A stretch of DNA of 59,779 nucleotides from Patescibacteria group bacterium (GTDB taxonomy: Bacteria > Patescibacteriota > Patescibacteriia > Magasanikbacterales > GWA2-37-8), in assembly GCA_028705565.1 (NCBI GenBank), contig JAQWDH010000006.1, positions 1 to 59,779 of the forward strand. Direction: 5' to 3'. The text below is the continuation of a report on this DNA, generated by a model with database tools. The stretch is not shown here.

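Follow-up and report, generated by a model that had tools for sequence, protein, structure and literature searches.

The locus in the window is largely what the initial annotation took it to be, a single-strand glycan mega-locus of 48 genes over about 58 kb, but it is modular and larger than stated. The window is a complete contig (59,779 bp) whose similarity to the sister strain, a same-species assembly, ends at 59653; the 126-nt tail that runs from there to the contig end at 59779 is unrelated, has no Rfam match and was absent from the 95 loci compared with it. In the sister strain five further plus-strand genes follow g48, the last of the window's genes, and encode in order a GH57-like protein, a class I/II aminotransferase, an unknown protein of 424 aa, a UDP-sugar 6-dehydrogenase and a TviC/GalE-like epimerase, after which come rpmA (on the opposite strand), mraZ and rsmH. 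With this continuation the island comprises ~53 genes and ~66 kb, and the largest contigs among relatives (0.6-1.3 Mb) suggest that it makes up ~5-7% of the genome. The g48 gene is defective in both strains, by different lesions: in the window (58590-59660) it is cut at about residue 350, its stop supplied by the unrelated tail, and in the sister strain (L093, 10001-11512) it has an in-frame TAG at codon 373, present in the ENA, NCBI, JGI and Logan copies, within a frame that is otherwise 489 codons long and matches 493-aa homologs.

Could this arrangement be an assembly chimera, a possibility named in the initial annotation? Three kinds of independent assembly rule this out, since all show the same arrangement: Logan contigs of SRR22315502 (100% identical), which span the window start to 4795 and, as two contigs with a mutual overlap of 30 nt, 8907-59682; an ENA contig of 96,266 bp (98.0-98.5% identical); and an NCBI MAG contig (GCA_041651595.1, 76,290 bp, 98.7% identical). 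In agreement, the distance from g19 to g48 differs by no more than ~24 nt between the window and the ENA contig. The island is bordered on its 5' side by a restriction-modification pair, RecQ and a DrrAB-type ABC-2 exporter, none of which is kept beside orthologs of g1, the island's first gene, in relatives. In the sister strain, 5 kb upstream of the window, the pair (L089, 132-2046) consists of an N6-adenine methylase and an R.Pab1-type restriction endonuclease and lies with RecQ directly upstream of the ABC-2 genes, so that a defence system flanks the glycan island.

All 48 ORFs of the window (1199-59660) are on the plus strand, and its opposite strand holds no credible long competing ORFs. 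Packing is dense, with 98.8% of the sequence coding and a median of 13 nt between genes; 36 of 47 junctions are at 30 nt or less and 16 overlap. The six ATGA overlaps reported earlier are all present; the one at 45808 hinges on the start chosen because public gene calls put a later start at 45835, as they also do at 8306, 13622, 21933, 29916, 30670, 36416, 43515, 56640 and 58602. The accompanying list of long gaps was correct, save for one overlooked gap of 47 nt (7118-7164). The co-directionality exceeds the local background: adjacent genes in the 10 kb upstream of g1 orthologs in relatives share a strand with a frequency of 0.744, at which a simple model gives 47 consecutive same-strand junctions a probability of ~1e-6.

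Is this run a single transcript? The proposed promoter, TTGACT-17-TATAAT at 1143-1171, does exist, is the top intergenic plus-strand match in the window and is preceded by a hairpin with a T-run (~1067-1096) that ends the upstream genes, but it is a candidate only, because in each third of the window shuffled sequence yields promoter-like matches about as often as the real one. The window's only 127-nt gap, with the WbuX-type amidotransferase gene g39 on its 5' side and the methyltransferase gene g40 on its 3' side, is occupied by a plus-strand hairpin of unique sequence followed by UUUUC (49783-49860; dG -38.6 kcal/mol, z -5.5), which is conserved in the sister strain and has a promoter-like match, ATGACG-16-TATAAT, just 5' of it (49737-49764). 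This hairpin may act as terminator, attenuator or leader structure and points to one or more internal boundaries or attenuators within the locus; the run probably consists of several transcription units rather than one 58-kb transcript.

Pfam and NCBIfam reproduce nearly the whole gene inventory of the initial annotation (7 GT4, 2 GT-C, a Wzy_C+TPR protein, one ABC exporter, 2 cytidylyltransferases, 8 radical SAM proteins, 5 methyltransferases and 3 ATP-grasp ligases), the exception being that three GT2 domains were counted rather than four; two more transferases are GT-B-like, and Pfam misses or barely detects them. The evidence best supports a heteroglycan pathway that depends on an ABC exporter: the heteroglycan would be assembled lipid-linked and exported via the ABC exporter, GT-C enzymes would add extracytoplasmic decoration and a WaaL/PglL-type enzyme would complete the pathway; the glycan would bear both pseudaminic (Pse)-type and Kdo-type acids, with heavy tailoring by radical and SAM-dependent enzymes. 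The sole exporter of the island is g31, a TMD-NBD half-transporter of the Sav1866/MsbA/HepA/PglK class. In g1, a Wzy_C domain and about 12-13 TM helices are combined with a TPR domain at the C-terminus; in its membrane domain, a profile built from 29 orthologs matches WaaL (7tpg) and an oligosaccharyltransferase of solved structure (9rmk), and R217, R292 and H342 are invariant. The GT2 protein g18 matches ArnC over its full length and ends in TM helices, g11 is AglJ/PpgS-like, and together with the GT-C proteins g16 and g22 they form two ArnC/ArnT-like sets that would decorate the glycan outside the membrane. We found no initiating phosphoglycosyltransferase in the locus and no KdsA in the window. 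Since CPR, to our knowledge, lack LPS, the acceptor is likely a protein or another envelope anchor.

Among the acidic-sugar genes, g33 and g34 score above the equivalog cut-offs for PseB and PseC, respectively, g38 belongs to the NeuB synthase family and falls slightly short of the PseI cut-off, g37 is a cytidylyltransferase-DUF218 fusion and g39 is of a type that forms acetamidino groups; PseG and PseH were not found in the locus. Plausible sources of unusual N-acyl or branched substituents are the ATP-grasp ligases, the methyltransferases, an ALS-like ThDP enzyme with a FabG-like reductase and the additional aminotransferases further downstream. On the Kdo side, g26 scores above the kdsB cut-off, and both its profile (E 6e-10) and its fold relate g32 to KpsC and WbbB, which are beta-Kdo transferases. 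The family of g30 (36386-38044) is without a Pfam model or a PDB sequence match, although its GT-B fold is confident (pLDDT 91); it numbers 429 cluster representatives at E<=1e-30 and 766 at E<=1e-10, nearly all from CPR MAGs, with single matches labelled Archaeoglobus and Bdellovibrionota. Around g30-family genes in 32 CPR loci (homologs in L096-L127), a g26-type cytidylyltransferase lies immediately 5' in at least 12, a g24-type methyltransferase immediately 3' in at least 18, and a g1-like protein within a few kb in at least 12. Homologs of g32 adjoin PseB/PseC/NeuB genes in three loci (L101, L108, L118), and L095 and L096 keep the order of the g26 and g30-g32 homologs, the KdsB-like gene of L095 adjoining HAD (KdsC-like) and DAHP_synth_1 (KdsA-like) genes. 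From these neighbourhoods and gene orders we assign, by association only, the Kdo-type CMP-sugar to g30 and the nonulosonic acid to g32.

Seven of the window's radical SAM proteins are of the B12-binding type and one is a radical SAM-SPASM protein. Their mutual identity is just 23-34%, so we regard them as old paralogs and reject a recent duplication. None meets an NCBIfam equivalog cut-off, and the best partial matches are to the sugar-acting enzymes HpnJ and AprD4. Two have non-canonical cysteine motifs: g9 (11409-12761) has CX3CX3C (C202, C206, C210) along with a weak B12-like domain, and g21 (25681-27096) has CX4CX2C. The g9 gene overlaps the short SDR gene g10, and the pair, which is kept in L128, resembles the radical SAM dehydratase AprD4 and its reductase AprD3, which deoxygenate an aminoglycoside sugar (PMC5461906). 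Eight such proteins in one island are exceptional in this sample: of 112 loci surrounding g1 or g30 homologs in relatives, only 7 held any radical SAM homolog, with at most two each, each view covering only +/-10 kb.

Relatives of the B12-radical SAM protein g12 (33-66% identity) occur in CPR, DPANN archaea, Elusimicrobia, Planctomycetota, Nitrospinota, Omnitrophota, Deltaproteobacteria, Clostridia and others, with identity reaching 66% across domains; the gene is often directly beside a small ArnC/AglJ-like GT2 gene, and in Phycisphaerae beside a DegT-type aminotransferase. The window's g11 and g12 share an ATGA overlap, and in 80 loci around g12 relatives (L128-L207) a g11/g18-type GT2 gene lies within 300 nt of a B12-radical SAM homolog on the same strand in 24, and within 1.5 kb in 36; L128 retains the entire GT2-rSAM-GT-C-rSAM-SDR-GT4 block. 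These recurrences suggest that GT2 and g12-type B12-radical SAM genes form a mobile, uncharacterised two-gene cassette. Its GT2-then-radical SAM logic has precedents in calditol synthase and in hopanoid synthesis, where the GT2 HpnI adds GlcNAc, HpnK then acts, and the radical SAM enzyme HpnJ contracts the ring. A 2026 review on lipid-modifying radical SAM enzymes nowhere mentions polyprenyl/undecaprenyl substrates. A possible experimental model is the cultured alphaproteobacterium Paramagnetospirillum marisnigri SP-1 (L176, NZ_LWQT01000066.1 239026-260381), which has a co-directional cluster made of the same parts as g18-g31: SDR, cyclase, 2-hydroxyacid DH, GT2-ADH fusion, cytidylyltransferase, unknown protein of 570 aa, type IV ABC exporter, two radical SAM proteins, ArnC-like GT2, AsnB and a third radical SAM protein, all three being B12-radical SAMs. 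Its proteins are 32-52% identical to g18-g29 components.

The locus sits at a conserved hypervariable site. Full-length g1 orthologs (43-56% identity) occur in at least 80 MAGs, and those credibly labelled are Candidatus Magasanikbacteria/Patescibacteria; many TPA MAGs with Magasanikbacteria-type or CPR/DPANN-type genes (L005, L007, L012, L022, L129, L169 and others) are labelled 'uncultured Gammaproteobacteria', 'Candidatus Udaeobacter', 'Methanosarcinales' or 'Saccharibacteria', labels that look unreliable and are unfit for inferring host range. When every window protein was compared by tblastn with loci around g1 orthologs, g1 was the constant element. For 53 relatives the sequence extends at least 8 kb past g1; downstream of it, 50 of them carry homologs of glycan genes, most of these on the same strand, and only 12 of the 53 have half or more of this content in common. 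Eleven share a backbone, g3-g4-g5-g7-(g8)-g14-g11-(g16, g19), which includes a radical SAM homolog only in L039 (g6, 70%). In the best g1 relative, contig CAYZYP010000001.1, the same terminal genes recur ~41 kb downstream of the g1 ortholog (UGDH 71%, SDR 75%, rpmA on the minus strand 71%), and L042 has g1, a single SDR gene and rpmA side by side. The G+C of individual genes switches block by block between 0.26 and 0.40. These features mark the island as a hypervariable locus of the O-antigen/capsule-like kind, made of exchangeable modules. The mosaic composition and the independent recurrence of modules also favour the principal rival reading, that the island encodes several products; against it speak that there is one exporter and one gene of ligase type, and that g1-like and g30-family genes are linked across CPR. 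Surface-glycan islands are known, and what sets this one apart is the lineage of its host, how large it is for the genome, its number of radical SAM genes and its recurrent uncharacterised modules (KdsB-like/g30/methyltransferase/Wzy_C-like; KpsC-like plus Pse genes; GT2 plus B12-radical SAM).

Many relatives (L017, L027, L039, L046, L050, L051, L060, L062, L074, L080, L083) have a second, divergent Wzy_C-type paralog (25-31% identical) 2-5 kb upstream of the g1 ortholog; none was found in the window's 1.2 kb upstream or the sister strain's 5 kb. The g3 gene (4376-5953) joins an SDR sugar dehydratase to a domain of ~200 aa like the N-terminal half of the adjacent GT4, an in-frame fusion also seen in L079 and L075. 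It contains the window's only notable homopolymer, a G7 run at 4412, and in the sister strain its frame is intact, with 4 aa differences, yet NCBI's table has no gene there.
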